Notes: a model not told the origin generated them from the sequence alone. A stretch of 64,000 nt of DNA from an uncultured Actinomycetes bacterium (GCA_963781615.1 CAWAGI010000008.1:3939-67938), one strand, 5' to 3'. Counted from the stretch's first letter, positions 11,480 to 38,170 are shown. Made by a program: numbers and translations.

Positions 11480-11773
11480 GTGGACACCGCGGAGCAACTA
11501 CGCGAGGTTCGATCGAAGATCGACATCGCGCTCGAGGCGGTCCGTGCCGATCAACAGGCGTCGCCGGTTCTCGTCGCCGTGGTCGGTGAGTTCGCGGCCA
11601 AGGGTGCGAAGGCAGCAGCGGCCGACGACGAGCGCGGCGCCGTCATCGAGCTCGAGCAGGCCGGTGACAGCGCCAAAGCGGCGGCCGAGGCGGACGCCGG
11701 TGCCGCCGACGGCACTCGCCAGGCGGTGCTCGATGCCCACCTGGCGATCTGCATCGCCAAGTCGAAGCTCTGA
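11480..11773 (+). CDS. Small helical hypothetical protein
   Basis: 97 aa with plausible codon usage; ELEQAGDSAKAAAEAD..HLAICIAK. Confidence 0.7.
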   Translation: MDTAEQLREVRSKIDIALEAVRADQQASPVLVAVVGEFAAKGAKAAAADDERGAVIELEQAGDSAKAAAEADAGAADGTRQAVLDAHLAICIAKSKL

Positions 11774-11902
11774 GTCGTCCTTCTCGAACTTCGAGCTCGC
11801 AGCCCGGGCGATGGCGGCGCCTCGATCCGCTCGGTCGGTCAATTCCTTCATCACGACAAGCTGAGGTCAGCTCGGAGGCGTCGACGAGGCGGGGATCGGA
11901 CG

Positions 11903-11946
11903 CGGGAGGCGGGGGATCCGGTCGTGTTGGACCTCTCCCGCCTCCC
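11903..11946. terminator. GC-rich stem-loop between convergent genes
   Basis: GGGAGGCGGGGGATCC...GGACCTCTCCCGCCTCCC imperfect inverted repeat. Confidence 0.55.
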
Positions 11947-11996
11947 ATACTTCCGGAGCGTCCCTAAGGCGGAGATTGTGGGACGGGCTGGGGAAG

Positions 11997-12005
11997 TTAT
12001 CCACA
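11997..12005 (+). promoter_or_regulatory. Single perfect DnaA-box consensus
   Basis: TTATCCACA in intergenic DNA. Confidence 0.35.
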
Positions 12006-12055
12006 GTCTGCTCCCACCACGGACAGTGGTCAATGGGCAACCTGGGCTCGGTGTC

Positions 12056-14179
12056 TCAGCGACCGCCCCGGCCGCCGCCACCGCCACCCCCGCCGCCACC
12101 GCCGGCCCCACCGCCGCGGGTCGGTCGCCGCCGCGGTCGCGCGGGTTGGGCCCCGGTGCGGGCGCGGGCGGCGGTGGGCCCGTGTCGGGCGGCGCCGGCG
12201 GTGGGACGTACGTCGTGCGGCCGGCGACCGGGTCGACGAACTTGCCCGGCGCGGCGCAGGCCGGTCCCGGCGCCGGGAAGGGAGCGTCGGCGGTGCCGCG
12301 GAGCGCGGGGACCATGAAGCCGCGCCAGATGCCGTTCGGGACGCCGGCGCCGAACCCGGCGCCGGGGACGTCCTGGTCGGGCATGCCGTGCCACACGTCG
12401 GTCACGAGGTTGGGCGTCCCACCGAGGAACGCCGAGCTGACCTTGCGGTCGTTCGTGCCGGTCTTGCCGAACGCGTCATGTCCCGGGATCCCCTTGCCCG
12501 ACGCGGTCCCACTGGGGTCGTCGATCGGGCCGTGGAGGATGCTCACCGCGCAGTGGGCGACGTTGGGGTCGAGCACGCGGGTACCCGGACGGCCGGCCTC
12601 GTCGAACAGGACCCTGCCGTCGGGCTCCACGACCTTGGACACGAAGATCGGGTCGTGGTGGACGCCGTCGCCGGCGATGGTCGCCGTGATGTTCGCCATC
12701 TCGAGCGGTGTGACCGAGATGACGCCGAGCGTGAACGTGAGGACCCGCCATTCGTTGACCGGCTGGCGCCCGGGGACCACCGATCGCATGCCCATCTTCT
12801 GGGCCATGTCGATGACCTTGTCGAGGCCCACGCTGGTGGACAGACGCACGAACGCGCAGTTCACCGACTCGGCCGTCGCCTGGTCGATCGTCATGACGCC
12901 CCCGCCGCCCTCGGCGTTGTCGGTCGACCCGCCGAAGCCCGGCACGCTGCACGGCGCCGTCCCGTCGACCTGGTCGTTGCGCGAGTAGCCGTTCTGGAGG
13001 ATCGTCGCCAACGTCGTGATCTTGAAGCTCGACCCGACCTGGCGCCCGGCGCCGTCGGTGGCGAGGTTGAACTTGGCTTCGCCGTACGGGCGGCTGTCGG
13101 TCATCGCCTTCACGTAGCCCGTCTTGGGATCCATGGAGACGAGCGCGGCGGCGAACCCCGAGGTGGCCGATCGCAGCCCTTGGGAGACGGCGGCGTCGGC
13201 TTTCTGCTGCAGCGTTCGGGTCCAGCGTCGTGTAGACCTTCAAGCCTCCCTGCAGCAGCTTGTCGCGACGCTCCTCCGGCGTCGCGCCCAGCCGCGGGTC
13301 GTTCAACAGGATGTCCTGCGCCTTCTGGGTCCAGGCGTTGTCGGGTCGCAGCTCCGCCGAGGGCTTCACCGTCGGCAACGGCTCGTTGTTGGCCTCGTCT
13401 GCTTGCGCCTGCGTGATGTACTGCTCCTCGACCATCCCCTTCAGCACGTCCGCCCGCCGTTCGAGCGCGCGGTCCGGGTGCACGAAGGGGTTGTCACCCT
13501 CGGGGTTCTGGATCAATCCCGCCATCAACGCCGACTCGCCCACCGTGAGCTCGCCGAGCTGCTTGCCTCGAATGCCGAACGGCGCCGAGGGATCGGGAGT
13601 GAGGAAGAAGCGGCGTGCCGTGGCCTTGACGCCGTACGAGCCCTGCCCGAAGTAGACGGTGTTGAGGTACTGCTTGAGGATCTCCCGCTTCGAGTACTTG
13701 TTGTTGAGCCGGTAGGCCAGGACGAGCTCCTTCGCCTTCCGTTGCAGGTCCTGCTTGTTCCCGAGGATCCGGTTCTTGACCAGCTGCTGCGTGATCGTCG
13801 ACCCGCCCTGGCTGATCTCGCCCTTCGTGAGGTTCTCGACGAACGCACGCGACACGCCGGAGACGTCGATGCCCGAGTTCGTCCAGAACGTCTTGTCCTC
13901 GGTCGCGATCACCGCGTTGATCAGGATCTGCGGCACCTCGTCGAGCCCGGCCGGCTCACGGTCCTGCACGCCGAGCTTGCCGATCTGCGCGCCGGTCGCG
14001 TCGTACACCGTCGTCGGCTGCGAGAGCTCGCCGAGGCTCCCGACCGTGGGGGTGTAGCGATTCGCCTGCGCGATCTGGCGCGCGCCCGGGATCAGCGCGG
14101 CGAAACACACGGCGAGGGGAAACCCGCCGGCCAGGATGATGACCGCGAACCTCGCAAGAATCGGAGCACGTCGTGGCAT
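12056..14179 (-). CDS. Class A penicillin-binding protein (transglycosylase-transpeptidase) with Pro/Gly-rich tail; frameshifts near 13215 and 12140
   Basis: ATEDKTF, QGGSTITQQLVKN, YLNTVYFG; SxxK (GSSFK), SVN, KTGT; tail ends GGGGGRGGR*. Confidence 0.9.
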
Positions 14180-22476: not shown

Positions 22477-22971
22477 TTACTTCTCCGCGGTCTCGATCTC
22501 CTTCTTCAGCTCAGCCGCGTCGGCGTCCACCTGCTTCTGCAAGACCTTCTGCGCACGCGTGACGGCCTTCTGGATCTCCTCGTCGATCCTCGACTCGCCC
22601 ATCACGATCAACGCGGCGTTGCCCTCGTCCAGCGCCTCGCCGAGGTCCTTGAGGTCGCCGCGTGACATGCCCTTCCGCAGGTGGCCGATCACGCCCCCGG
22701 CGGTGCCACCGACGATGGCGGTGCCGACGATCGACGGCGGGAACAGGATGCCGGCGAGCGCGCCGACCCCGATGCCCGTCCAGGCGCCGTGCTGCGTCGG
22801 CTTCTCGCGCTTGTGAACGTGGACCTTGTCGTCCTCTTTCTCGATCACCGCGGCGTCGAAAGTCCCGATGGCCTTCGCTGCGTGAAGATCGAAGACGGCG
22901 TCGTAGTCGCTCTCGGCATCAGGGATGTTGTCGTACACCGCGGCGTAGAGGAACACGGGTCGGTCAGCCAT
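22477..22971 (-). CDS. DUF1269 domain protein
   Basis: DAAVIEKEDDKVHV, glycine-zipper GAWTGIGVGALAG, LKDLGEALDEGNAALIV; GGAGG RBS. Confidence 0.85.
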   Translation of the reverse strand: MADRPVFLYAAVYDNIPDAESDYDAVFDLHAAKAIGTFDAAVIEKEDDKVHVHKREKPTQHGAWTGIGVGALAGILFPPSIVGTAIVGGTAGGVIGHLRKGMSRGDLKDLGEALDEGNAALIVMGESRIDEEIQKAVTRAQKVLQKQVDADAAELKKEIETAEK

Positions 22972-23093
22972 TTCTCGACTCCTCCGTCGGTGGGGGGAAT
23001 GTGAGCACCTGCTCCGAACTGACCGTACGAAGGAGCACCGGAAAACGCATCACCCCGGCGGGATGATTCGAGAGACGTTCGACGAACGAGCGT

Positions 23094-24026
23094 TCAGCGT
23101 GCGAGCGAGGCCGTGCGGGTGTACCAGTCGACGTAGCGGCGAAGCCCGTCGGAGAAAGGTGTCTCCGCCTCCCACCCCAGCACGCGTTTCGCCTTTTCGC
23201 CCGAGATGACCCGGCCTTCGTAGTCGCCCGGGCTGAGCGGACCGCCCTCGATCGTGAACGGCGATCCGAGCAGGTCGCGGACCTCTTCGGCGATCCGCCG
23301 GATCGTGATGGGTTCGGGGCCCTTGAGGTTGAACACCTCGTTCTCGGCGTCGCCGGAAAGCGCGGCCAGGTGGGCGCCGGCGAGGTCGTCGACGTACACG
23401 TAGTTGCGGAACTGCGAGCCGTCGCCGTTGACCGTGTTCGCCTGGCCCTCGAGCGCCTGCCGCACGAACCGCGGGATCACGAGGTTCTCCGACATGCCCG
23501 GCCCGTACACGTCGCCGTAGCGCAAGATCGTGAACGGGGTGCCGTAGAGCTCGCAGTAGTTGTGGGCGATGAGCTCTTCGGTGATCTTCGACGACGTGTA
23601 GATGTGCCCCGCGCTCGGGAGATGGAACGGCGCGTCCTCGTCGATCGGGGCGTCGCCGTGCGCGCCGGCGTAGACCCACGCCGTGCTCGCCAGCACCGTC
23701 CGGCGCACCTCGTTGCGCCGGCTGGCCTCGAAGACGTTCGCCGCGCCCGCGACGTTCACCTGGACGGCCGAGACCGGACGCGCCAAGGCGTCGCCGGCGT
23801 CGGACATCCCCGCCAGGTGGAACACGGTGTCGAGGTCACGCGTCGCCTGGACCAGCTCCGCAAGATCCAGCACGTCGACGTGCCGGTACGCGAGGTCCGA
23901 TCGCTGGGGGCGGTGCTGATCGAGGACGACCACGTCGGAGCCGGCAGCGGTCATCCGATCCGCCACGCACGACCCGATGAACCCCGAACCGCCGGTGATG
24001 CCGATTCGTCCCGCCGGTTCCTGCAT
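23094..24026 (-). CDS. NAD-dependent epimerase/dehydratase (NDP-sugar)
   Basis: ITGGSGFIG, FHLAG, YTSSK (YxxxK), LRYGDVYGP, GDGSQFRNYVYVDDLA. Confidence 0.92.
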   Translation of the reverse strand: MQEPAGRIGITGGSGFIGSCVADRMTAAGSDVVVLDQHRPQRSDLAYRHVDVLDLAELVQATRDLDTVFHLAGMSDAGDALARPVSAVQVNVAGAANVFEASRRNEVRRTVLASTAWVYAGAHGDAPIDEDAPFHLPSAGHIYTSSKITEELIAHNYCELYGTPFTILRYGDVYGPGMSENLVIPRFVRQALEGQANTVNGDGSQFRNYVYVDDLAGAHLAALSGDAENEVFNLKGPEPITIRRIAEEVRDLLGSPFTIEGGPLSPGDYEGRVISGEKAKRVLGWEAETPFSDGLRRYVDWYTRTASLAR

Positions 24027-24089
24027 CGCGCTCCCGGTCGTCGTTACCTGGTAGAGCCGAGGTTACGCTCCTGAGTCCTCCGTCAAGTC

Positions 24090-24240
24090 TCAGTGCGCGA
24101 CGAGGATGGTCTTGACGAGGGCGATGAGAACACTGAGCGCGAGCGCGGTCACACGCGTAGAGACACGCCGCACGCGCGGCCTATCCGCGATCCGGGCGAG
24201 GAAGTAGGCGACGACACCGATGAGGAGGGCAGGCAGTCCC
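24090..24240 (-). pseudogene. Degraded 3' fragment paralogous to the membrane protein at 7411..7947
   Basis: LPALLIGVVAYFLARIADRPRV..CLY..TALALSVLIALVKTILVAH* versus VPALLIGIVAYVVARIAGRPRVISCLYGITALALGVLIALVKSILAAH*. Confidence 0.8.
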
Positions 24241-24260
24241 GGACACGACAACGTCGCCGC

Positions 24261-25430
24261 TCAGCGGCCGCCTGGTGCCGACGTGAGGACGGGGACAGGT
24301 TCCGCGTCACGCCGTCGGACGTGACGCGCGGCATTGATCACTCGGAACCCGAAATAGGCGAGCGAGAGCGGAAGTGCGATGGCGAACACGACCATCGTGG
24401 CCGCCTGGTCGGCGTTGGAGACGACGGGAGGCGCCAGGTGCCTCATCGGCGTGCCGATCCTGTCGTGCAGCAGGAACAAGGCCGCGCCCGCGAGCAGTAC
24501 GGCAGCAGCGAGCACCACTCGCGAGCGTGTGAGCATGGCACCAAGGTCGTCGCTCACCGTGTGCACGGCCCGCGGGATTCGGACCCGGTCGCCGACCGCC
24601 GACCACGGAAAGAAGATCGAGTACGCGACGACACTCCCGGTGAAGTCGATGCCGAAGGCGAGGAAGATGGCGAAGTGGAAGACGACGGCCGCCGCGCAGA
24701 ACAGGCGCAGCCGTCGCGGTGAGACGATCGCGATCGCGAATCCCAGCTCGAAGAGCACCGTCAGGTAGTCGAGCGGCTTCCAGAGCAGCGCGCTCGTCGA
24801 CTCGAGCGGCAACGTGCCGAGCAGGCCGTCGTCCGGGGCCACGAAGTGGTAGTGCACGACATGCGAGCGCACTGCAAGCGTCGAGGGATCGATCCACCCA
24901 GAGGCGAGCTTCGGCAGCACCGCCGTGAGCATCAGGAACCCCAGCACCAGCGCCGCGAGCGCGACTGGCCACGCCTCGGCCTGCCGCTCGGCGCGCCCGG
25001 GTTGGCGGACGGCGTCGACCGAGTAGGCATCGCCCCAGTTGGACGCGGCCATGATCACGAGCACCGCCGCGAGGTAGGTGCCGGAATGGTGGATGTGGCC
25101 GAAGGAGTACGTGAACCCGTCGACCGTCAAGAGCAGCAGTCCCGTCACGCAGGAAGCGAGCCGTGTGTGATAACCGACGAGGAGCGCGACGGTCGTCACC
25201 GACAGCACGACGGAGAGGGCTGTGAGCGCTCCAGAGGACGGCACGTCACCGATCAACCGCAACGGCCCCGGCGGTGGACGGTAGAAGGCCTCCGGGAGCG
25301 AGCTCATCCAGCGCACGTCCGGGAATCGCTACAGGACGAGATACGTCGCGACGAGAATCCGTGAGATCGCGAGCGATCGAGGCGTGGGCGTGAAGGAATC
25401 GAACATCCAGTGGTCGAGACGGCGACCCAT
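24261..25430 (-). CDS. HTTM-like multi-pass membrane protein (frameshift near 25320)
   Basis: LLVGYHTR, SFGHIHHS, WGDAYSVD, AVLPKLASGW, TVLFELGF, VFHFAIFLAFGIDF; N-terminus MGRRLDHWMF in adjacent frame. Confidence 0.75.
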
Positions 25431-25434
25431 CGCG

Positions 25435-26016
25435 CTAGTCGCCGAGAGGCACGACCAACCGGGCGAAGGGCCTCACCATCGACGCGGTGGCGCGCTGGTC
25501 GGCGTAGCGGTGCTCGTCCCAAGTGATCTCGAGCGAACGCGGCGTCTGCCCCGGATAGAGCTTCGCGATTCGGTCGCGAAACCAGGCAACGGTCCCCGGG
25601 TCGCGCAGCGTCGCAGAGAGGTTGCGGGCGCCGGATCGGAACGAGGGCTGCTGGAGGAAGAGGCGGAACTGCGCCGGCGTCGACGTGGGGTGCGCCTCCG
25701 ACGAGCGGGGCGCGAGCACCGTGTAACGATCGAGTCGGCGACGACGCCGGGAGCGGGTTGGAGCAGCTGCTGGTACGGCACGACGACGAGCCGGTCGGGA
25801 TCTCTGAACCGCACCGTGAGCGTCGGGCGTACGAGCCGCACCGCGCTCACCGTCGTCAGGAGCGCCGGGGAAGCTCGGGAACACGAAGCTGGGGTAGGGC
25901 TCCTGCGCGGCGTACGCGTAGCCGGCCTGGGCGATGAGCAGCGCGACCACGGCGAGGAACACGACGCGCACGAACCTCCGGCATCGTGCGCTCGGGCGCG
26001 GCGCCCCTTCGGTCAT
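25435..26016 (-). CDS. Membrane-anchored partner of the HTTM protein (internal frameshifts)
   Basis: TM helix followed by EPYPSFVFPSFP; stop lies 4 nt upstream of the HTTM start. Confidence 0.6.
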   Translation of the reverse strand: MTEGAPRPSARCRRFVRVVFLAVVALLIAQAGYAYAAQEPYPSFVFPSFPGAPDDGERGAARTPDAHGAVQRSRPARRRAVPAAAPTRSRRRRRLDRYTVLAPRSSEAHPTSTPAQFRLFLQQPSFRSGARNLSATLRDPGTVAWFRDRIAKLYPGQTPRSLEITWDEHRYADQRATASMVRPFARLVVPLGD

Positions 26017-26050
26017 GCGACGGCGGAGGTGCACGCGGCGCCGGCGCGCA

Positions 26051-27064
26051 TCACGCGGTGTCCCAGCTCGCACGGTGGATCACGCGAGCCGGGCCGGCAC
26101 GGGCTCGCCGGCGTTCGCACGCCGCGACCACGCGCGGTGTCACGACGCGATCGAGCGCGGCACGCGCGCGGTGGACGACAGCGCGTATGCGTCCACGGAG
26201 GCCGTCTCCCGACTCCTGTCGTCGCCCGAGCCGCCGCTCGCGATGCCCCTGACGGAAGATGTCGTCGATGGCCAGGTCCGTGAGCTGCCAGGAGTCGTTG
26301 AACCGGCGGAACGATCGCTCGGCCCACTCGTCGCTCCAGCGCGGCAGGTAGAAGCGGTAGTCGGCCAGCGTGTTGCGCTTCGGCCACGGGTACCGCACCA
26401 CGACCGACGGCTCGAACCAGATCTCGCCGCCTATGGCCACAACCTGCAGCGAGAGGGTCGAATGCTCCCGCGCCGCGATCAGGCCGTCGTCGAAGGGGCC
26501 GATGCGCCGGAGCACGCCCACCCGGGCGAGGAGGCCGTGCGCCTCCACGTACTCGGTCGGGGCTCGCGTGAGCTCGGCCAGAGCGCCGACGGGGCGATGC
26601 ATATGCGTGTTGTGCTCTTCGAAGCGCCGAGCCGTCCCGTCGCTCACGATCCGACACGTTCCGCCGGCAAAGTGGATCTCCCAGCGGTCCCGTCGCCCCC
26701 ACAGGACGGCCGCCGCGACCAACACCACGCCCGTGTCGTCCGCGCATCGCTCCAACCCCTCCAACCATCCGTCGTCGACGAACGTGTCGTTGTCGAGAAA
26801 GCACACGTATTCGGTGTCGACGTGGCGCATGGCCTCGTTGCGGGCCTCGTTGGACGTCATCACGGCGTCGCGATGGATGAGCGTAAAATCGTGATCGTCC
26901 GCGAGATGTGCGAGGCGTCGCCAGATCCGCCGCGGTGCACCGCCGTCGACGACCACGATCCGGCTGGGCGCGGGCGTGCGTTCGACCAACGTCTCGAGCA
27001 TCCGCGGTGTCACGCTGTACGACTCGCGCGGCACCACAGCGATCGTCGTTCGTGGCTGGCCCAT
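26051..27064 (-). CDS. Glycosyltransferase family 2
   Basis: IAVVPRESYS, IVVVDGG, ARNEA, YVCFLDND, GPFDDGL, REHSTL. Confidence 0.9.
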   Translation of the reverse strand: MGQPRTTIAVVPRESYSVTPRMLETLVERTPAPSRIVVVDGGAPRRIWRRLAHLADDHDFTLIHRDAVMTSNEARNEAMRHVDTEYVCFLDNDTFVDDGWLEGLERCADDTGVVLVAAAVLWGRRDRWEIHFAGGTCRIVSDGTARRFEEHNTHMHRPVGALAELTRAPTEYVEAHGLLARVGVLRRIGPFDDGLIAAREHSTLSLQVVAIGGEIWFEPSVVVRYPWPKRNTLADYRFYLPRWSDEWAERSFRRFNDSWQLTDLAIDDIFRQGHRERRLGRRQESGDGLRGRIRAVVHRARAALDRVVTPRVVAACERRRARAGPARVIHRASWDTA

Positions 27065-27118
27065 AGCCGGATCCCCCCGTCCCGGCCACGGTAACACGCG
27101 TGCGAGGATGCTTCCGTC

Positions 27119-28234
27119 GTGAGGATCCTCTTCCTGACCCCGTTGTACGTTCCGCACGTCGGCGGCCTCGAGACGCTCGTCCGCCAGCTTGCCGGTGCGC
27201 TCCAAGCACGGGGTAACGATGTTGCGATCGTCACCTCGCACGGTCGCGAGGTCGCCTCCGGCGACGACGTCGTCGACGGTGTGCCAGTGCGCCGCGTCGG
27301 CGCACACGATGTCGTCGAAGCCCGGGACGCGGCGGCGATCCTCCGCGTCGAGCTCGATATCCTCCGGTTCGCCCGGGATTTCGCGCCGGACATCGTGCAT
27401 TCGCACGACGCGGGCCCGGTCCTGTGGATGTACTCGCGGGTGGCACGCCGCGACCCGCGACCGCTCGTCGTCACGTTGCACAACGTGATGACACGCAAGT
27501 TCGCGTCGGTGCTCCCCGTGCTTGCAAAGATGCTCCGCGACGCCGATTGGATCACGGCCGTGTCGCAGGCAGTTGCCGACGACGTACTCGAGTACGAGCC
27601 TTCGGTGGCGTCACGTACATCGGTCATCGTCAACGGGATCGTGCCACCGGTGCGCGACGCATCGGCGGTCCCGGACGGCCCACCGAAATTGCTCTGCATG
27701 GGAAGGCTCGACCGGCAAAAGGGCTTCGACATCGCCATCGCCGCATTCGAGCGGCTCTGCGGCCCGTGCCCGGATGTCCGGCTCGTTGTCGCCGGTGATG
27801 GGCCCGAGCGCAATCGTCTGATCGCACTGGCGTGCTCGCTCGGCGTCGACGACCGGGTCGACTTCGTCGGCGAGGTCGACCGAGCGCAGGTCGGGGCGCT
27901 GCTCAACGCGTGCACCGCCGTCGTCATGCCGTCGCGGTTCGAGGGCTTGCCGCTCGTCGCGCTGGAAGCGGCGTGGGCCGGGCGACCGGTCGTCGCGGCC
28001 GCGGCTCCTGGTCTGACCGACGCCGTCGTGCCCGGTGAGACCGCAGTGATGGTCCCGGCCGAGGACGCCGACGCGCTGGCGAAGGGCATCGCCGAGCTCC
28101 TCGCCGCCCCTCGGCGCGCCGGCGAGTTGGGCCGGAGCGGACGCGCTGTCGCCGAGAGTCGTTACTCGCTCGATCGCTGCGTCGACGACTACGAGCTCGT
28201 CTACCACCGTGTCCTGGGGAAGGGCCTTTGCTAG
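27119..28234 (+). CDS. Glycosyltransferase family 4
   Basis: YVPHVGGLET, GRLDRQKGFD, PSRFEGLPLVALEA (Ex7E). Confidence 0.93.
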   Translation: MRILFLTPLYVPHVGGLETLVRQLAGALQARGNDVAIVTSHGREVASGDDVVDGVPVRRVGAHDVVEARDAAAILRVELDILRFARDFAPDIVHSHDAGPVLWMYSRVARRDPRPLVVTLHNVMTRKFASVLPVLAKMLRDADWITAVSQAVADDVLEYEPSVASRTSVIVNGIVPPVRDASAVPDGPPKLLCMGRLDRQKGFDIAIAAFERLCGPCPDVRLVVAGDGPERNRLIALACSLGVDDRVDFVGEVDRAQVGALLNACTAVVMPSRFEGLPLVALEAAWAGRPVVAAAAPGLTDAVVPGETAVMVPAEDADALAKGIAELLAAPRRAGELGRSGRAVAESRYSLDRCVDDYELVYHRVLGKGLC

Positions 28235-28275
28235 CGTGCCCCGGCGTGACGGCGAGTGTGGGGCACGCGCAATCC

Positions 28276-28695
28276 GTGTTCGAGGTACGCCCGACCGTGA
28301 GGCACGAGCGCCTCGACGACGAGGTCATCGCGATCGACCTCGAGAGTGGCGCGTACTTCGCGTTGGACGACGTCGCCGCTGTCTGCTGGTCGATCCTCGC
28401 CGCCGGCGGGACCCTCGACGCGGCGGTCGACGCGACCGTCGCATGCTTCGACGTCGCATCTGAGACCGTGCAGCGTGACGTCGAGGGCTTCGTCGACGAG
28501 CTCGTCCGGGTCGGACTGCTCGCGCCGGCCGACGGGTCACCGGAACACGCCCGGGTGCCGCACACGGAGCAGGACGACCGTGCATATAAGCCGCCGGCCA
28601 TCGAGCGCTTCGACGACCTCGAGGAGCTCCTCGTGCTCGACCCGATTCACGAGGTCGAGGAGGCCGGCTGGCCGGCCACTCCCGCCGACCGGTAG
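28276..28695 (+). CDS. PqqD/RRE-domain protein with leader-peptide-like C-terminal tail
   Basis: HERLDDEVIAIDLESGAYFALDDVAAVCW...DVEGFVDELVRVGLL; tail YKPPAIERFDDLEELLVLDPIHEVEEAGWP. Confidence 0.88.
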   Translation: MFEVRPTVRHERLDDEVIAIDLESGAYFALDDVAAVCWSILAAGGTLDAAVDATVACFDVASETVQRDVEGFVDELVRVGLLAPADGSPEHARVPHTEQDDRAYKPPAIERFDDLEELLVLDPIHEVEEAGWPATPADR

Positions 28696-28707
28696 CCGGG
28701 CAGAGCG

Positions 28708-29403
28708 TTGGCCACCGACGATGCCGGCCGCGTCAGCGTCGTCGTCGCCGTCCGCGACGGGGAGCGCTACCTTGCCGAGGCGCTCGACAGCATCCTCGGC
28801 CAGTCCGCTCCGCCGGGTGATGTGGTCGTCGTGGACGACGGCTCCACCGACGGGACTGGAGCGGTGCTCGAGCCGTACGAGCGCCGGGTCCGGGTCGTGG
28901 CACAGCCGGCCGAGGGCGTCGCTGCCGCGATGAACCGCGGGATCGCGGCGTCGACGGGCGAGATGCTCGCGTTCCTCGACGCCGACGACGTGTGGCCCCC
29001 GACCTCGCTCGAGTGCAGGCTCGCCCGCCTCGCGATTCCCGACCGGCCGGACGCCGTCTTCGGTCGGATCGCCCAGTTCGTGAGCCCAGAGCTCGGCCCG
29101 GCCGCGGCGAGCACATTCCGGTTCGACCCCGCCCCCGTCCACGCGCCCATGTTTCAGACGATGCTGATCCGGCGCGAGGCCTTCGACCGAGTCGGCGCCC
29201 TCGCCACCGACTACGTGATCGGAGCGAACATCGACTGGTCGTCGCGTGCTCGCGCCGCCCACGTGCGCACCGCGCTGGTCGAGGACGTCGTCGCGTTGCG
29301 ACGGCTCCACGGATCGAACCTCGGCGTCACCGAGCGCCGGCGACAGACGGAGGACCTCGTCCGCGTCGTGCGCGCCCATCGTCGGCGCACGCTGTCGAGC
29401 TGA
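28708..29403 (+). CDS. Glycosyltransferase family 2
   Basis: VSVVVAVRDGERYLAEAL, VVVDDGSTD, AFLDADD. Confidence 0.92.
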   Translation: MATDDAGRVSVVVAVRDGERYLAEALDSILGQSAPPGDVVVVDDGSTDGTGAVLEPYERRVRVVAQPAEGVAAAMNRGIAASTGEMLAFLDADDVWPPTSLECRLARLAIPDRPDAVFGRIAQFVSPELGPAAASTFRFDPAPVHAPMFQTMLIRREAFDRVGALATDYVIGANIDWSSRARAAHVRTALVEDVVALRRLHGSNLGVTERRRQTEDLVRVVRAHRRRTLSS

Positions 29404-29413
29404 GAAGACCTCG

Positions 29414-31025
29414 TCACCCTTCGACGACGCGCACGGCACGGAGCTGGACCGATGGCCGCGCATCACCCGGGCCCCGATCCCTCCGGGCCGGCGCGAACGG
29501 CTGCTGCGGTCGGATCACCACGTCGATCGGCCGGCACCAGTCACCCAGCCAGCCCGGGACGTCCAGGCGCGGCGGCGTGTAGTCGCCGCTGCTCCCGAAC
29601 CGCCACTCCGCCAGCGGCCGCCCGTTCACGAGCACGACCGCGCGCGGGTTGGGGCTGCGGTGCGCGTCGTCGCCGAAGCGGAACTCGATTGCGAGCTGCC
29701 GCCCCCGCGGCACCGTGGTGTCGAGCGCCAGGCGCGCTTCTGCCCCGTCCGTCCACACGCCATCGAGCATCGGCCAGCTCCAACCCGATCCGGCGACGCG
29801 ATCGAGCGCGGCTGCGGTCGTGAGCTCGATCCACTCCCCGGGACGGAGGGCGCGCGGCGCCGGCGGGCGGGCGAACGGGCCGAGCCCGCGGAGCGCCGCC
29901 ACCTCGATTCGGCGCGGCCGCCCGACGAGCGCGAGCGCGGCGCTGACCGCCGGATACCGGCAGAGCGCAGGCTCGATGCGCCGCCGAAACATGTCGCGTG
30001 CGGCTCGGATTGGACGTGTCTCGTCGCCGTGCACGGCGGCGGCGCGCGCCAGCTCGCTCAGCCGCGGGAAGGATCGGCCGCGGATCGTGCCCGTCTCCGT
30101 TCGCGGCGAGAAGCCACTCACGGACCCCCGCTCGGTCACGATCCATCTCCGCCGCCGCGCCTCGAATGGAGGAGGCGCCGAGCGCCCTCGCCATGGTGTC
30201 CAGTGCCTCGCTTGCCAGGTCGTGCACGCCGAGCTCGCGAGCGCGACGGGCGAGCTGTCGCCCGTCGACGTGGTCGAGCACGCCGGCAACGTCTGCGATC
30301 CATGCCAGGCGGTGTGCGGGCTCGCTGTGCGAGGCGTGCTCGATCAGGTGCAGAACCTGGTCGGCCTCGTCGAGCGCGAGCAACTCGATCTCCCCGAAGC
30401 AGACGCGGCGGGTGCGGCGGAACAGCTTGTCGTCGACGCTGCCCGCTCTCACCGCCTCGAACGCGTGCCAGTGCAAGTCGAAATTGTCGTAAGGCGTGCC
30501 CCGTTCGTAGTTCCAGCCATGGCGTCGCAGCACCAGCCGCCGGGCGAGGAACTCGGACGAGACCCCGCCCCGTGCGACCCATCCGGCCGCATCGAGCGCC
30601 CGGGCGGCCTGCATCGCGCTTCCCGCGGGGACGAGCAGGTCGACATCGCCCATCTCACGGGCGCCCCATGGGCATCGCCCCGAGGCAAGAAGTGCGGCAC
30701 CCTTCATGAGCACGGTCGGGATGCGGGCGTGGGCAAGCGAGCGCAACGCGGGAGCGACGGCGTGGCTGCGAAGCTGGTTCGCCGTCCAGACCCATCGGTA
30801 CTTGCCCCGCAACCGGGGCGGCAGGCAGTCGGCGCTGCCCTGGGCCGCGAGGTTTGCGTACACGCGGGGGAGGAGCCGCGCCTCGTCGAACGGCAGGTCG
30901 TCGAGTTCGACGCCCGCGAACCACTCCTCCCACACGGCGCGCGCCTGCGGGCCCGACACTGCGGCGGCACGGAGGAGGAGACGGTCGCGCGGGCCCGGTT
31001 CGCTGAACCTTGTGCGACGTCCCAT
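29414..31025 (-). CDS. Nucleotidyltransferase (NTP_transf_5-like) with C-terminal beta-sandwich domain; frameshift near 30110
   Basis: VLMKGAAL, REMGDVDLLV, DLHW, WIADV; C-terminal GSGWSWPMLDGVWTDGAEARL. Confidence 0.85.
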
Positions 31026-32066
31026 TCAGGTGCAGTGCACGAGGCCGGCGACGGCGTCGGCGATCTCGTCGGCGTCGTCGCCGAGCTCGAGCACGAATCC
31101 CGGAACGCACTCGGCGACCCGAGCGAGAAGGCAGAGCGTGTGCTGGGTCGCGCCGAACAGGCCGAACACGGTGCTTGGCGCCATCGCGCGCAGGACTGTG
31201 CCGGGCGTGGTGGGCTCCAGGCGCACGCGTCCGGTGAGCCGCGGGACGACGATGGCGCGCAGGGGCGCGCTCGTGGCGAGGAGACGGTCGTAGGAGCCGG
31301 CGAGGTCGAGGATCGCCTTCTCGCGGTCGAGGCGGTCCGCGTTACGCACCGTCGGGCGGAATTCCGGAAGCCGCTCGAGTGCGTCCGGTTGCAGCTTCGC
31401 GGTCGTGTACACACGGTGCACGACCGGCGGAGCGCCCCCGTCGACCAGGCAGTAGTCGTCCCCGAAGAACTGCATGCCCGCGCGCAAGCACGTCAAGGAC
31501 GTCGTCGACTTGCCGGCGCCTGCCCCGCCGACGAGCAGCGCGGCCCCCGCCGGACCGGCGACGGCCGCCGCGTGCGTGAGCTGCATGCCGCGACACGCAG
31601 CCCACCACGAGAGGATGAGCCGCAAGGGTGACGCCGACTGCCAGTAGGCCATGAGCCGCGCGTCCTCGATCCAGAAGCGGGCGTGCGACGTCGCCCGGTC
31701 GAAGAGGCTGAGCGACGCCGTGTGCACGTCCACCGCGGTGAGGAATCGCTCGTCGCAGTACGTTTTGACCAGCCCCAGGGGCCGGAGGTCCTCGGGGTGC
31801 CAGGGGGCCTCGCCGATCGGCATGCCCGAGGTCGCGCTGTCGAACATGTCGACGACCAGGTCCGGTGCAGTCGGCGGAACCATCTCCGCCGACGGGCGCG
31901 CGAGCGCCGGATCGGTGCGCGCGACCAGCTCGGCGCCGGCGGCGCGCACGAGCACCTGCTTGCCCGCGATCTCGTAACAGCGGTCATGACGCCCGCAGGC
32001 CTCGGCGGCGGCGTCGAACAGCGCGCCCGCGCCGGCAAAGTACCGGCGGGCGGACGAGCTGCTCAT
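31026..32066 (-). CDS. HPr kinase-like P-loop kinase
   Basis: LTHAAAV, LLVGGAGAGKSTT (Walker A), FFGDDYCLV; ATGA-coupled to the upstream gene. Confidence 0.88.
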   Translation of the reverse strand: MSSSSARRYFAGAGALFDAAAEACGRHDRCYEIAGKQVLVRAAGAELVARTDPALARPSAEMVPPTAPDLVVDMFDSATSGMPIGEAPWHPEDLRPLGLVKTYCDERFLTAVDVHTASLSLFDRATSHARFWIEDARLMAYWQSASPLRLILSWWAACRGMQLTHAAAVAGPAGAALLVGGAGAGKSTTSLTCLRAGMQFFGDDYCLVDGGAPPVVHRVYTTAKLQPDALERLPEFRPTVRNADRLDREKAILDLAGSYDRLLATSAPLRAIVVPRLTGRVRLEPTTPGTVLRAMAPSTVFGLFGATQHTLCLLARVAECVPGFVLELGDDADEIADAVAGLVHCT

Positions 32067-33596
32067 CGTGCCGGCTCCGGAAGGCGGGGCCAGCCGGCCT
32101 CGTCGACGAGCAGGCGGGGCTCCCGGATGAGCAGGTGCGCCATGTCGTCGTACGCCTCGACCACCGGAGCCTCCCACCTCCGGCCCACGGGCTCGGCGCC
32201 GTCGGGCCCTCGCGAGCCGTCGACCGTTGCCGCTCGCGCGAGCAGGCCCGCGCGTTCGAGTCGGGACGTGAGGCGCATGACGTCGGCCTTCACCACTTCG
32301 AGCGGCGCGCCGTACTGCCGCGTCAGCCGACGGGCCACGCCACCCAGTGTCGCCGGGTGCTCGAACGACCTCCAGACGTCCGCGGCGCTGCCTGCCATCG
32401 CGTAGTACGTGCCGCGCTCGACATCGATGGCGACGACCTCGTTGTCGAGACGTTCGTGAACGATCCCGGGGGCGTTTCGCATCACGACGGAGTCGAGGCT
32501 CTCGTGCCCGAGCGACCGGTAGACGTCCGCATACGCGCACGCGCACGATACGACGTCGAATCGCACCGCCCGCCGGCGCGCCCGCTCGCACATGTCGTTC
32601 GTGCGCATGGGATCGGCGAGGAGCCGGTCGACGGCCGCCGCGAGCAGCGTCGGCGTCGTCCGGCGAGACGAGGAGCCCCGTGAGGCCGTCCTCGATCGTC
32701 TCCGGTAGCCCGCCGACCCGGGTGGCGACGACCGGGCGGCCCAGGTGCGCAGCCTCGAGTGCCACCAGCGAGAAGCCCTCGATCGTTCGCGACGGCACGA
32801 GCACCATCGATGCATGCGAGATCTCGCGCAGGATCTCCTCGCGCGGCAGGCTGCCGAGGAACCGCACACGCGACGCGATCCCGAGCCGTTGTGCCTGTGT
32901 CCGCAGGTTGTGCTCCTCTTCGCCGGTGCCGGCGAGGTGGAGCGACAGGCCCGGGCGGCGCCCCGTCAGGCGGCCGAGCGCCTCGATCGCGAGGTCGAAC
33001 CCCTTCTGGTCCTGGAGCCGACCGGCGGCGAACAGGTGGCCGGTCGGTGGCCACGGTGCGGAGTCGCTCGGCGCCTCGATCGCATTCGGAATTACTTGCA
33101 CCCGGTCGAGGTCGAGCTTCGGGACGGTTGCGGCAACCGACTCACGGACGCCGCTCGACACGGTCGTGACCACGTCGGCGGTCGCCAGCATGCGCTTCGT
33201 GACGCGGTTGAACAGGGCAGGCTCCTCGATGGTCCCGTGCACGCTGATGACGAGCGGGAGTGGAGCCCGTTGGTGGCGCCGCCACACGAAGAAGGTGTTG
33301 AAGTCGAGCCCGTGGACGTGCCGGAGCGTGACGCCATGCCGTGCTTCGATGTCACGGAGCCGACGCGTGACGTCGAGGATCGCGGCCGGATCGGGCGAGC
33401 GCGCCGCGGCGACGAATGGGAGGCGATACACCGGCACGCCGTCGACGGCGGAGGCCGCAGGCCCGTCGTCGTCGACCTCGGTCACGATCACCGGCTCGTA
33501 GCCCTGGTCCCGGAGCAGGGGCAGGGTGTGGCGAAGGAGCGTCTCGATGCCCCCGACGTGGGGGACGTAGCGGGTCGGGGCGATGAGGATGCTCAT
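32063..33596 (-). CDS. GT4 glycosyltransferase-PqqD/RRE fusion with leader-like tail (frameshift near 32650)
   Basis: YVPHVGGIET, GRLQDQKGFD, EGFSLVALEA; GT4 C-terminal helix (YADVYRSL) runs in frame into HERLDNEVVAIDVERGTYYAM...WEAPVVEAYDDMAHLLIREPRLLVDEAGWP. Confidence 0.82.
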
Positions 33597-33792
33597 GTGT
33601 GGGCCCCGTCGGGTCGGCGGCCTCCCAGCCGCTGCCGGCCGAATCCGGGAGGCATGGCGAGAGGTTAGGCGTCGCGGCTCATGCCGGACGGTTGACGACC
33701 TCGTTGCCTGCAATCCGTTGCCGGCGCCGGGGCGTACATCCTCGAAGCCAGCCTCTCGATGTGCGGGCGAGTTCAGCCGGGGGAGTTGAAAC

Positions 33793-34497
33793 ATGGGTCG
33801 ACGAGTGTTCGTGACCGGGGGGACCGGAGCGCTGGGCACCGCCGTGACGAAGCGGCTGCTCGAAGATGGTCATCGTGTCGCGGTCACGTGCCGGCACGAG
33901 GGGGAGGTCGCGGAGCTCAAGACCACGCTCCGCGACCTCGACGCCGATCTGGCGGTCATGGAGGCCGACGTCACCGATGAGGACTCGTTCGGGCGAGCGA
34001 TGGCGGAGTTTCACAACCAGCTCGGTTCGGTAGAGGTGCTCGTGCACCTGGTCGGTGCCTGGCACGGCGGAGAGCCGGTCCAGGACCAGTCGTTAGAGAC
34101 GTGGAGGCGTTTCACTGATCTCAACCTGACCTCGGCGTTCCTCTGCGCTCACGCCGTGCTCCCCGAGATGCTCGACGAGGGCTGGGGTCGCCTGGTCATG
34201 GTGTCGAGTCGCACGGCGAGGGAGGGCCGCAACGGCCAGTCGGCGTACACGGTGGCCAAGGAGGGCGTGGCGACGTTGGCGGAGGTGATCGCCGACGAGT
34301 GCTGCGGGAGCGGTGTCACTGCCAACACCATTGCGCCCTCGGTTCTCGACACTCCCGCCAACCGCGGCGCGATGCCGTCGGCCGACTTCACCCGATGGGT
34401 GCAACCGAGCGTGGCCGCGGCCGTCGTCGCCTTCCTGGTTTCCGAAGAGGCCGGTACGTTGCGCGGCGCGTGGCTGCCTGTGTTCGGGTCCGTCTGA
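33793..34497 (+). CDS. Short-chain dehydrogenase/reductase
   Basis: VTGGTGALG, YTVAK, PSVLDTPANR. Confidence 0.92.
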   Translation: MGRRVFVTGGTGALGTAVTKRLLEDGHRVAVTCRHEGEVAELKTTLRDLDADLAVMEADVTDEDSFGRAMAEFHNQLGSVEVLVHLVGAWHGGEPVQDQSLETWRRFTDLNLTSAFLCAHAVLPEMLDEGWGRLVMVSSRTAREGRNGQSAYTVAKEGVATLAEVIADECCGSGVTANTIAPSVLDTPANRGAMPSADFTRWVQPSVAAAVVAFLVSEEAGTLRGAWLPVFGSV

Positions 34498-34530
34498 CAC
34501 AGGGATGCGCCGCCGGCGCTGACGTGACGT

Positions 34531-36839: not shown

Positions 36840-36916
36840 AACACGTGAACGACCCGGAACCGGGCGGCTCTCGCATCGGGGGCCGCCCGCTCCGCGTCTC
36901 GCGGGGGATGAAGGCC

Positions 36917-36946
36917 TTGACGTGCGAACGTATGTTCGTCTAGGTT
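36917..36946 (+). promoter_or_regulatory. Promoter with LexA SOS box
   Basis: TTGACG (36917) and TAGGTT (36941) flank CGAACGTATGTTCG (36925-36938). Confidence 0.85.
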
Positions 36947-37000
36947 CATGGGGCACTCCCCACCGCTTCCCCCCGTCCGTTCGTTCGTGCCGGAGGAAGC

Positions 37001-38170
37001 GTGTTCGGGTTCGAGAAGGTCCGCAGCGCTGTCGACGCTCTGAAGGCGACGGCACACGCGCTCGACGCCGCCCGTATCGACGGCCACGACGCCGACCGCG
37101 CTCTTCGACGCTGTCAGCGAGGGCGAGCGCGTGTGCGGCGCCATGAAGGCTCTCTTTGGCCCGACGCATCGAGGAGACGAAGGTCTGGCGGGAGTCCGGG
37201 CATCGAAGCGCCGCACACTGGGTCGCGGAAGCGACGGGCGAGACCGTCGGCGCCGCGTCCCGGACGCTCGAGACGGCGCGGGCGTTGGACGCGCTGCCCG
37301 AGACCGATGCCGCGTTCCGTGCCGGCAGGCTGTCACCGACACAAGCAGCGGAGATCGCCAGCGCCGCCGGCGCCGATCCCGCTGCGGAGTCGGAGCTGCT
37401 CGACGCCGCCGGTGGCACGAGCGTGAAGGGTCTGCGCGACCGCTGTCGGCAGGTGCGCGCCGGCGCCGAGGCCGACGATCGGGCGTGGGCGCGCCGCCTG
37501 CACCTCGAGCGGCGCGCGCACTCTTGGAACGATCCCGAGGGCTTCTACCGCGTCGAGGCCCGGCTGGCGCCCGACGCGGGCGCCCGATTCAGCTCAGCGT
37601 GGCAGGCGCACGTCGACCGCATCTTCCGCGACGCGCGCCGGGCCGGTGTCCGCGAGCCGAGCGCCGCGTACGCGGCGGACGCGCTCGTGGCGCTCGCAAC
37701 CGAAGGCCCCTGCAAGCCGGTCGAGGTGCGCGTGACCGTCGACAGCGCCGCGCTCGCCCGCGGGCACACCGAACCGGGTGAGCGCTGCGAGATCGATCGG
37801 GTCGGCCGCGTACCCGTCACGACGGCGCGGGCGATGCTCGACGACGCGTCAGTCGGGGTGCTGGTGCGCGACGGCGACGAGATCACCGCGGTTTCGTCGC
37901 CCAAGCGCACGATCCCGATCAAGCTGCGGCGCGCGCTCGAGGCCGGTTTCCCGGTCTGCGGCGTGAAAGGGTGCGCCAACGACCGGTTCCTGCAGATCGA
38001 CCACGTCGTGCCGCTGGAAGACGGGGGCGAGACCAAACGTGCACAACACGTGGCGGATCTGCTCCCATCACCACTCCTTGAAGACGTACGACGGCTGGAG
38101 GGTGGTCGGGCAGCCCGGCAACTGGGACCTCGTCCCACCCGATGATCCCGACCCGCCGCCGTCAGGCGAC
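37001..38170 (+). CDS. DUF222 / HNH endonuclease (13E12-repeat family), frameshifted near 37100-37160 and 38040; 3' end approximate
   Basis: WRESGHRSAAHW, ADALVAL, RTIPIKLRRAL, CGVKGC..LQIDHVVPLEDGGET..NTWRICSHHH. Confidence 0.85.

Follow-up and report, generated by a model that had tools for sequence, protein, structure and literature searches.

A conserved cassette of RRE, P-loop kinase, glycosyltransferase and nucleotidyltransferase genes in an uncultured actinomycete, and a possible role of its self-leadered RRE protein in phospho-glycosylation

A 64,000-nt stretch of DNA from an uncultured Actinomycetes bacterium, here called the window, carries a group of genes whose core is a variant, of the family 4 glycosyltransferase (GT4) type, of a conserved four-family cassette. 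The four families are a RiPP (a peptide made by the ribosome and modified after translation) recognition element, or RRE, a P-loop kinase, small family 2 glycosyltransferases (GT2s) and a PF14907 nucleotidyltransferase. RREs are guides that bind a separate leader peptide. In the cassette, the guide and the recognition motif reside in one protein, and nearly all members keep the two joined. The cassette is taken as a self-leadered variant, for which no description was found in print, of a known kind of system, the phosphorylation and glycosylation of peptides under the guidance of an RRE. The window adds several features that are new here: a clade of GT4-RRE fusions, paired canonical and relaxed RREs, an extended nucleotidyltransferase and a clean island boundary. 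The window is about 70% G+C, and the source assembly, G000, is 75.75% complete on 9 contigs. Genes were called on third-position G+C first and then by family search (Pfam, NCBIfam). The genes and domains named in a first-pass annotation of the same DNA lie where it had placed them, and its domain calls hold in both libraries; its interpretation is partly supported.

The kinase had 51 relatives, mostly metagenomic, in a large protein collection. A profile built from 15 relatives gave 125 relatives in species-representative genomes, from which 80 loci were kept, and the gene content of these loci was determined by searching their six-frame open reading frames (ORFs) with the proteins of the window. 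The first-pass annotation had staked its proposal on conserved co-occurrence of the gene set, and this was found: an RRE was present in 76 of the 80 loci, a GT2 resembling GT2b of the window in 78 (185 ORFs) and the nucleotidyltransferase in 60. A GT4 was found in 16-17 loci and an epimerase in 15. Among the other recurrent neighbours, an ATP-binding cassette (ABC) exporter was seen in 21 loci, a Wzx-like flippase in 10, an ATP-grasp enzyme in 6 and a sulfotransferase in 5. Gene order was counted in those loci, 79 in number, where the kinase match was strong, and the usual arrangement was RRE > kinase > GT2 > GT2 (> GT2) > nucleotidyltransferase. The RRE lay directly upstream of the kinase in 66 of these loci and the nucleotidyltransferase downstream in 50, with 0, 1, 2, 3 or 4 GT2s following the kinase in 8, 12, 35, 20 and 4 loci, respectively.

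According to the record titles, the loci came from Actinomycetota, Chloroflexota, Planctomycetota, Verrucomicrobiota, Acidobacteriota, Pseudomonadota, Cyanobacteria, Gemmatimonadales, Binatia and others. Only 3 of 400 other genomes from the phylum of the window matched the kinase profile at E ≤1e-20, and a metagenome scan with the kinase returned one locus, L099. The cassette is widespread but sparse. Three isolates, Novosphingobium sediminis NBRC 106119 (L075), Aestuariivirga litoralis KCTC 52945 (L045) and Coleofasciculus sp. LEGE 07092 (L024), have intact cassettes, which makes the question of the acceptor testable at the bench, and no NCBIfam model reached its cut-off on the cassette proteins of these isolates. 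Full-text literature searches, which covered main texts, found no description of the cassette and no paper that names NTP_transf_5.

The two RREs of the window end in ...LDPIHEVEEAGWPATPADR (RRE1) and ...REPRLLVDEAGWPRLPEPAR (RRE2). The family consensus for this tail, pFeaPvLEKYTDMQdLLLLDPIHEVDe.GWP, is better conserved than the RRE domain itself; the P, D, DP.H and GWP positions are 96-100% conserved among 73 RRE sequences, and in an alignment of 64 sequences the invariant columns were E14, G23, P105, D112, P121, G129, W130 and P131. The first-pass annotation had proposed that the RREs bear built-in leader tails, a claim that was borne out and can be extended, as a motif of the lasso-leader type, [YFW]xxPx[LIVMFA], precedes the DPIH..GWP block in 61 of the 64 aligned RREs. 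The motif block was found in 74 of 81 loci, as a single copy in 73, and was always terminal in the RRE reading frame. In the source genome the combination of the leader-type motif and a [YF]xD[LM]xxL block was confined to the two RREs, and DPIH..GWP to RRE1. RRE2 has WEAPVV and GWP, with EPRL replacing DPIH. More distant members of the RRE2 clade retain DP.H, so the constraint on the tail appears to have been relaxed once a second RRE was present.

An AlphaFold2 (AF2) model of RRE1 had a predicted local distance difference test (pLDDT) score of 88. Residues 101-110 (AYKPPAIERF) scored 97, with a strand at 107-110, and residues 111-137, which include DPIH..GWP, scored 61-69. The leader-type motif is thus modelled as docking in cis on its own RRE. 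The nearest solved folds to RRE1 in a Foldseek search were TbiB1 (35% identity, template-modelling (TM) score 0.87-0.91) and TfuB1, both solved with bound leaders. A profile of the RRE with its tail matched 1,627 cluster representatives at E ≤1e-30 and 6,034 at E ≤1e-10, out of 1.84 billion. The matches included proteins in which two or three RREs stand in tandem, and others in which a kinase is fused to a set of three RREs; one of the latter is P0054 (residues 445-780 34% identical to the kinase of the window, E 1e-43). As a separate observation, P0052, P0055, P0054 and P0057 contain two or three RRE units in tandem with an FxxPx[VIM] motif after each, and some are fused to the family kinase. 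A free, tail-only peptide was considered and rejected, as the short tail-bearing frames of L073, L080 and L087 seem to result from the ends of contigs or from errors of frame.

The kinase has the P-loop GGAGAGKST (GxxGxGKSTT in the family) and a GDDY motif. Its sequence matches in the Protein Data Bank were all HprK (best E 0.003), Hpr_kinase_C matched 13 of 15 members of the family, all below threshold, and the match to HprK_rel_B was weak (E 1.1e-7), far below the cut-off. The AF2 model (pLDDT 90.8) retrieved PEPCK (E 1.7e-9) and HprK/P (E 7e-6, TM 0.61 over the target) in Foldseek. A modelled complex of the kinase with RRE1 scored 0.69, as compared with 0.00 for the best of 3 controls. In a benchmark, 58 of 80 solved complexes scored at least as high, as did 2 of 110 mismatched pairs, counts that are rough, custom alignments having been used. 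The model runs had at least 88% of their contacts in common, with a partner pLDDT of at least 75 and 118 contacts. On the kinase side the predicted interface comprises residues 84-98, 112-117, 134-140, 181-182 (the P-loop) and 287-319, the invariant C-terminal block included, and on the RRE1 side it comprises sheet residues 5-27 and tail residues 110-134, so that both the RRE sheet and the tail are modelled as binding the kinase. Elsewhere, a 578-aa Mycobacterium protein (P0050), named as a glycosyltransferase in its source, was seen to combine GT2 domains with Hpr_kinase_C and to be 35% identical to half of the kinase.

The pairing of a PqqD-type protein with an HprK-related kinase recalls the HPr-rel-A system, which we take to consist of the HprK-related kinase A (TIGR04352) and a PqqD family chaperone (TIGR04353), and some cassette members are weak matches. 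However, the kinase of the window scored 18.4 bits against a cut-off of 200, and the isolate kinases 31-40 bits. Neither RRE matched TIGR04353 at E ≤0.01. The cassette kinase belongs to a separate family.

The nearest system in print is that of the linear polyphosphorylated peptide (LPP) clusters of Bacillota, with LppA/K/B/S/D/N (Popov et al., Nat Commun 2026, PMC13381572). In that text, lasso and LPP leaders bind RREs via a [Y/W]xxPx[L/V/I] motif, LppK polyphosphorylates LppA at Ser3, and no effect of LppN was seen. The cassette and the LPP clusters share an RRE, an RRE-bound [Y/W]xxPx[V/L] recognition motif and the lack of a lasso cyclase, and the embedding of LPP clusters in polysaccharide loci was counted as a further shared trait. 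The fold and motifs of the cassette kinase, and the PF14907 enzyme, make the two candidate counterparts of the HprK-like kinase and the NTP transferase of LPP. The LPP core genes, as described there, also encode a free precursor with the pattern YxxPxVLxHQxIxFETxxS, a leader peptidase resembling SpI and an exporter resembling MsbA, and the clusters are restricted to Bacillota. The cassette, in contrast, has its motif fused to the RRE and a different invariant block, has one to four GT2s after the kinase in 71 of 79 loci and extends to many phyla beyond Bacillota, and the island lacks a free precursor, peptidase and exporter. The LPP precursor motif had no match, by strict or loose pattern, in the six frames of the assembly, no ORF of the gene group had a peptidase family that could correspond to LppS, and no MsbA-like exporter was found there.

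Three families, the B1-type RRE, the HprK-like kinase and the nucleotidyltransferase, are also those of the paeninodin (PadeK) and pseudomycoidin (PsmK, PsmN) systems; in the available text, HprK-like kinases phosphorylate a Ser of the lasso precursor and the pseudomycoidin nucleotidyltransferase adds a hexose to the phosphate (PMC8498205). The same chemistry is expected here, with phosphate placed on a peptide and then hexose on the phosphate. The acceptor in those systems is the C-terminal Ser of a lasso precursor, with the cyclase and B2 adjoining (PMC8498205). None of these was found in the gene group of the window or, as a rule, in relatives. Fusions of RREs with glycosyltransferases were described by RRE-Finder (PMC7470986) and in a 2025 structure-based RRE survey (PMC12710340), as a sign of peptide glycosylation. 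The fusions in the available text of both are with GT2s (PF00535), whereas here a GT4 lies upstream of an RRE that bears its own leader-type motif. The words kinase and nucleotidyl do not occur in the main texts of these two papers, and clusters of this kind may be included in the supplementary tables of neighbourhoods that accompany PMC13381572, PMC7470986 and PMC12710340.

By analogy with these systems, the RRE protein may be both guide and acceptor, the primer of a protein-primed phosphoglycan. The protein consists of a lasso-B1-like domain, a linker, its own [YFW]xxPx[LIV] motif, modelled as folding back on the RRE, and then the LLLLDPIHEVDExGWP-type segment, and the kinase would bind the RRE sheet and the invariant segment. 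The kinase would phosphorylate a residue presented by the tail, as in paeninodin, pseudomycoidin and LPP, the nucleotidyltransferase would then place a sugar on the phosphate, and the GT2 and GT4 enzymes would extend the sugar chain. RRE1 would serve as the canonical protein. Since RRE2 is fused to GT4b and has lost DPIH, it is more likely the guide of that enzyme. That the tail of the RRE is itself phospho-glycosylated is our leading reading, held tentatively and at a little under an even chance. The tail is the likeliest acceptor because the RRE protein is the sole conserved non-enzyme, the conserved GT2s are small and soluble, and the conserved set, as judged from the recurrent neighbours of the 80 loci, has no priming phosphoglycosyltransferase, polymerase or flippase. 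The existence of natural RRE-kinase and GT4-RRE fusions also supports this reading, as does the absence of another encoded acceptor, judged by the short gaps of the island and by the lack of an LPP-type precursor motif in the assembly.

Several observations weigh against the tail as acceptor: 1) it has no conserved Ser, Thr or Tyr in the aligned RREs, and RRE1 has none of these residues between the leader motif and GWP; 2) GWP is followed by a variable stretch of 3-17 aa, which contains S or T in 41 of 64 sequences, no excess over the approximately 70% expected by chance from composition; 3) the conservation of the tail resembles that of an enzyme part and is unlike that of a RiPP core; 4) proteins that fuse RREs to the kinase have the GWP block at an internal position and not at the C-terminus; 5) neither the His nor the Asp of the block is present in RRE2; 6) no peptidase was seen in the conserved set, as judged by Pfam from ten recurrent neighbour families; 7) an exporter accompanies the cassette in only 21 of 80 loci; 8) the kinase complex is a prediction from custom alignments; and 9) the frameshifts described below could be real, which would make this copy a broken one.

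The absence of a conserved hydroxyl, the enzyme-like conservation of the tail and the internal block in the fusions make it nearly as likely that the RRE with its tail is a built-in subunit, self-loaded by its own leader motif, whose tail assembles or activates the kinase, the glycosyltransferases and the nucleotidyltransferase. This possibility, which we regard as a serious one with about a third of the weight of belief, would place the acceptor outside the cassette, for example in a glycan, a lipid, a metabolite or another protein. The modelled kinase interface, with its 118 contacts, is large and uses the invariant C-terminal block of the kinase, which would suit a subunit, as would the fusions to kinase and GT4 and the finding that the multi-RRE proteins P0052, P0054 and P0055, examined as full sequences, have a single DPIH..GWP block per polypeptide. 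Glycan genes likewise occur in some loci (the Wzx-like flippase in 10 of 80, GT4 in 15 by this neighbour count and the sulfotransferase in 5), and the gene group of the window has four glycosyltransferases and is surrounded by sugar-nucleotide and cell-wall genes. Yet the small, soluble GT2s and the lack of conserved priming, polymerizing and flipping functions speak against this reading, a role for RREs outside peptide recognition is not known, and no candidate acceptor was identified.

A narrower form of the primer proposal is that the RRE tail is a self-guided primer with a phosphate-linked glycan on a residue other than Ser, Thr or Tyr, the candidates being the invariant His or Asp of DPIH. 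Counted from the aromatic residue of the motif, the Asp is 18 residues further on, which is the position of the LPP phospho-Ser. We consider this form unlikely. If true, it would amount to a route that is primed by a protein, as with glycogenin, that descends from RiPP machinery and that occurs in more than 10 phyla. Resolution of the question would either add a class of phospho-glycosylated ribosomal products or show RiPP machinery turned to another use.

The coordinates of the genes are given in Table 1. A plus-strand arm, GT4a>RRE1>GT2b, and a minus-strand arm, GT4b-RRE2>kinase>nucleotidyltransferase, converge with their ends 10 nt apart, at 29403 and 29414, and the minus arm is tightly coupled, the RRE2 and kinase genes overlapping by ATGA and the kinase stop codon abutting the ATG of the nucleotidyltransferase, much as the first-pass annotation had it. 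The order is atypical for the cassette in that the sole cassette-type GT2 is on the opposite arm from the kinase. GT4a and GT4b are 37% identical. The gaps between genes do not exceed 118 nt. The 225-aa C-terminal piece of the nucleotidyltransferase has no Pfam, NCBIfam or PADLOC family; its Atlas scores were just 0.81-0.83, and DUF7024, on 14% of one cluster, is a lead only. In another locus, L019, a 744-aa nucleotidyltransferase (11745-13976) has the same C-terminal extension plus an S-adenosylmethionine (SAM)-methyltransferase domain, and a cassette-type GT2 lies between the kinase and the nucleotidyltransferase. In L063 (8335-9396) and 11 other actinobacterial loci, a 354-aa protein without a Pfam match lies upstream of the RRE; a KG...DLDL pattern, seen by eye, resembles that of PF14907 enzymes, and the protein may be a second, divergent nucleotidyltransferase.

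Table 1. Features of the accessory region and its edge, in window coordinates
Feature	Position	Strand	Evidence and remarks
Accessory island	24069..33708	no strand	~9.6 kb; absent between epimerase and SDR gene in four same-genus genomes
NAD-dependent epimerase	23094..24026	-	Epimerase E 1.8e-47; resident flanking gene
Hydrophobic 53-aa ORF at island edge	24090..24251	-	status uncertain; no leader-type motif
HTTM-like membrane protein	24261..25316	-	Pfam HTTM 27.6 bits against cut-off of 27.7, borderline
Membrane protein without family	25435..26073	-	one N-terminal membrane helix
GT2a glycosyltransferase	26051..~27094	-	Glycos_transf_2 E 3e-15; start uncertain, ORF open to 27481
GT4a glycosyltransferase	27119..28234	+	Glycos_transf_1 E 6.4e-39
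RRE1, PqqD-type, canonical tail	28228..28695	+	PqqD E 4.5e-14
RRE1 tail	28585..28692	+	YKPPAI leader-type motif, then FDDLEELLVLDPIHEVEEAGWP, then ATPADR
GT2b, small soluble cassette-type GT2	28708..29403	+	Glycos_transf_2 E 1.1e-27
PF14907 nucleotidyltransferase with 225-aa C-terminal extension	29414..31025	-	NTP_transf_5 E 1.7e-28; frame break within 30101-30131
P-loop kinase, HprK/PEPCK fold	31026..32066	-	motifs, PDB matches, Foldseek
GT4b-RRE2 fusion gene	32063..33596	-	frame break near 32652; PqqD E 1.2e-12; RRE2 domain and tail 32066-32500

In the assembly, two genes of the minus arm are interrupted. The reading frame shifts between GT4b and RRE2, and again between the two parts of the nucleotidyltransferase, with no stop codon at either change of frame. 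The GT4-RRE unit of the first-pass annotation, frame-broken as it stands in the assembly, is a genuine fusion with one extra base in the window, because intact GT4 plus PqqD relatives exist (nine of 509-510 aa and two of 345 aa, 69-89% identical to the piece in the window), the two pieces of the window abut on the intact fusions with three residues between them, and a 733-nt contig from soil, 94% alike, spans the site with one base fewer at 32652. In the public soil metagenome run that yielded this contig (X1), 0.06 of the sampled words were found, depth was 0.22 over 30110-30251, and no read covered the nucleotidyltransferase site. Both L099 (kinase 76% identical) and L019 (62%) carry the nucleotidyltransferase and its extension in one frame, and the broken segment has 31 nt in the window as compared with 30 in L099.

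A decaying remnant, in which GT4b and the nucleotidyltransferase are truly frameshifted, the RRE2 motif is degenerate and the product is no longer made, would account for two breaks inside 4.2 kb, for EPRL where the family has DPIH and for a minus arm with no GT2 after the kinase, as in only 8 of 79 loci. The pieces after the breaks are, however, as conserved as those before them (identity to L099 of 72% before and 65% after the break in GT4b, and 68% and 74% in the nucleotidyltransferase), the frames downstream of both breaks are open with third-position G+C of the coding type, and the soil contig has one base fewer. An unrelated gene, a B1 on contig C3, is likewise frame-broken. Same-genus genomes in hundreds of contigs are 94-99% complete and other few-contig genomes 60-75%, a pattern that, with the completeness of G000 itself, is read as indel error in long-read assemblies. 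The two breaks are probably assembly errors, and decay of the cassette is distinctly unlikely. Other overlapping ORF pairs in the window were considered as frameshifts, and those with a Pfam match proved to be separate genes.

A wider look at completeness in the genus showed that G001, G003, G009 and G013, together with G000, in 9-30 contigs, are 60-76% complete and the fragmented genomes up to 99%. Marker genes in the few-contig genomes are probably hidden by frame errors, so the gene calls in the window should be read with caution.

The first-pass annotation had described a tailoring set of the lasso or RiPP type without the lasso core enzymes. Among the ORFs of the island no match to Asn_synthase (PF00733), which would indicate a cyclase, and no match to Transglut_core3, which would indicate a B2 peptidase, was found by Pfam, nor was a free precursor seen among the ORFs or in the gaps, and in this respect the description stands. 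The absence is moreover the rule in relatives, and not a local loss: in a test of the 80 loci by PP-loop pattern (SGGxDS, ORFs of at least 300 aa) and by phmmer with the B2 of the genome, an Asn-synthase PP-loop ORF occurred in 2 and a B2 in none. The cassette is not a lasso cluster. The lasso_PqqD models matched the island RREs below their cut-offs, and the RREs are B1-type by PqqD and by the TbiB1/TfuB1 fold. The genome-wide search for lasso genes that had been suggested was positive in one part only, a lasso-type B1 and B2 pair being present elsewhere (G000:C3:307811-308479; B2 at 308153-308479, Transglut_core3 E 3.2e-19). For the cyclase, one weak partial PF00733 match (E 4.9e-6, model positions 13-85 of 354, C5:182236) was the only one in the whole 75.75%-complete assembly. 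In the surroundings of the pair (C3:307811-310421), the B1 (PqqD, frame-broken) and B2 adjoin two ABC transporter genes with no cyclase beside them.

It is very improbable that the substrate of the set is a peptide of the lasso or LPP type encoded at another place in the genome and made, for instance, by the B1 and B2 pair on C3 with a cyclase in the unassembled part, a notion favoured by the transporter genes beside that pair, the incompleteness of the assembly and the tailoring of lasso peptides by the same enzyme families (PMC8498205, available text) but opposed by the lack of a better cyclase match, the lack of lasso genes in relatives, the recognition motif carried by the RREs themselves and the lack of an LPP precursor motif in the assembly.

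The limits of the island were set by comparison with the genus. In four genomes (G017, G003, G001, G015), a block matching window positions 22478-24068, which hold a DUF1269 gene and the epimerase, lies only about 20-70 nt from a block matching approximately 33709-34500, which holds the SDR gene. The near adjacency of these blocks marks 24069-33708 as accessory and leaves the epimerase outside the island. The epimerase belongs to the core genes of the genus and is no island member, with 87-91% DNA identity in relatives of the genus that are without the island, so that its inclusion in the system by the first-pass annotation is not supported. The same applies to the divergent HTTM arm, as neither the HTTM gene nor the adjoining membrane protein gene has a homologue in any of the 80 kinase loci.

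The island has a G+C of 0.709, equal to that of the genome. Its ends share no direct word of at least 8 nt and only one inverted 8-mer, and no integrase was seen by Pfam among its annotated ORFs. Seven island proteins had no PADLOC match to a defence system. Among 18 same-genus genomes a good match to the kinase was found in one (G015, 38% identity), with one further weak match; G020, of the same genus, also has a kinase match. No HTTM gene was found in the 15 same-genus genomes searched. GT2a is not of the cassette type and has homologues in 4 of the 80 loci. The protein at 25435-26073 has an Arg-rich, out-of-character middle with weak third-position G+C, and may hide further frame errors. 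Beyond the island, a DUF222 gene (37147-38145; window 36913-38000) belongs to a multi-copy family with 72-80% DNA identity that is represented in every same-genus genome, with at least 6 further copies in G000, for example at C5:702861, C1:525617 and C3:221524.

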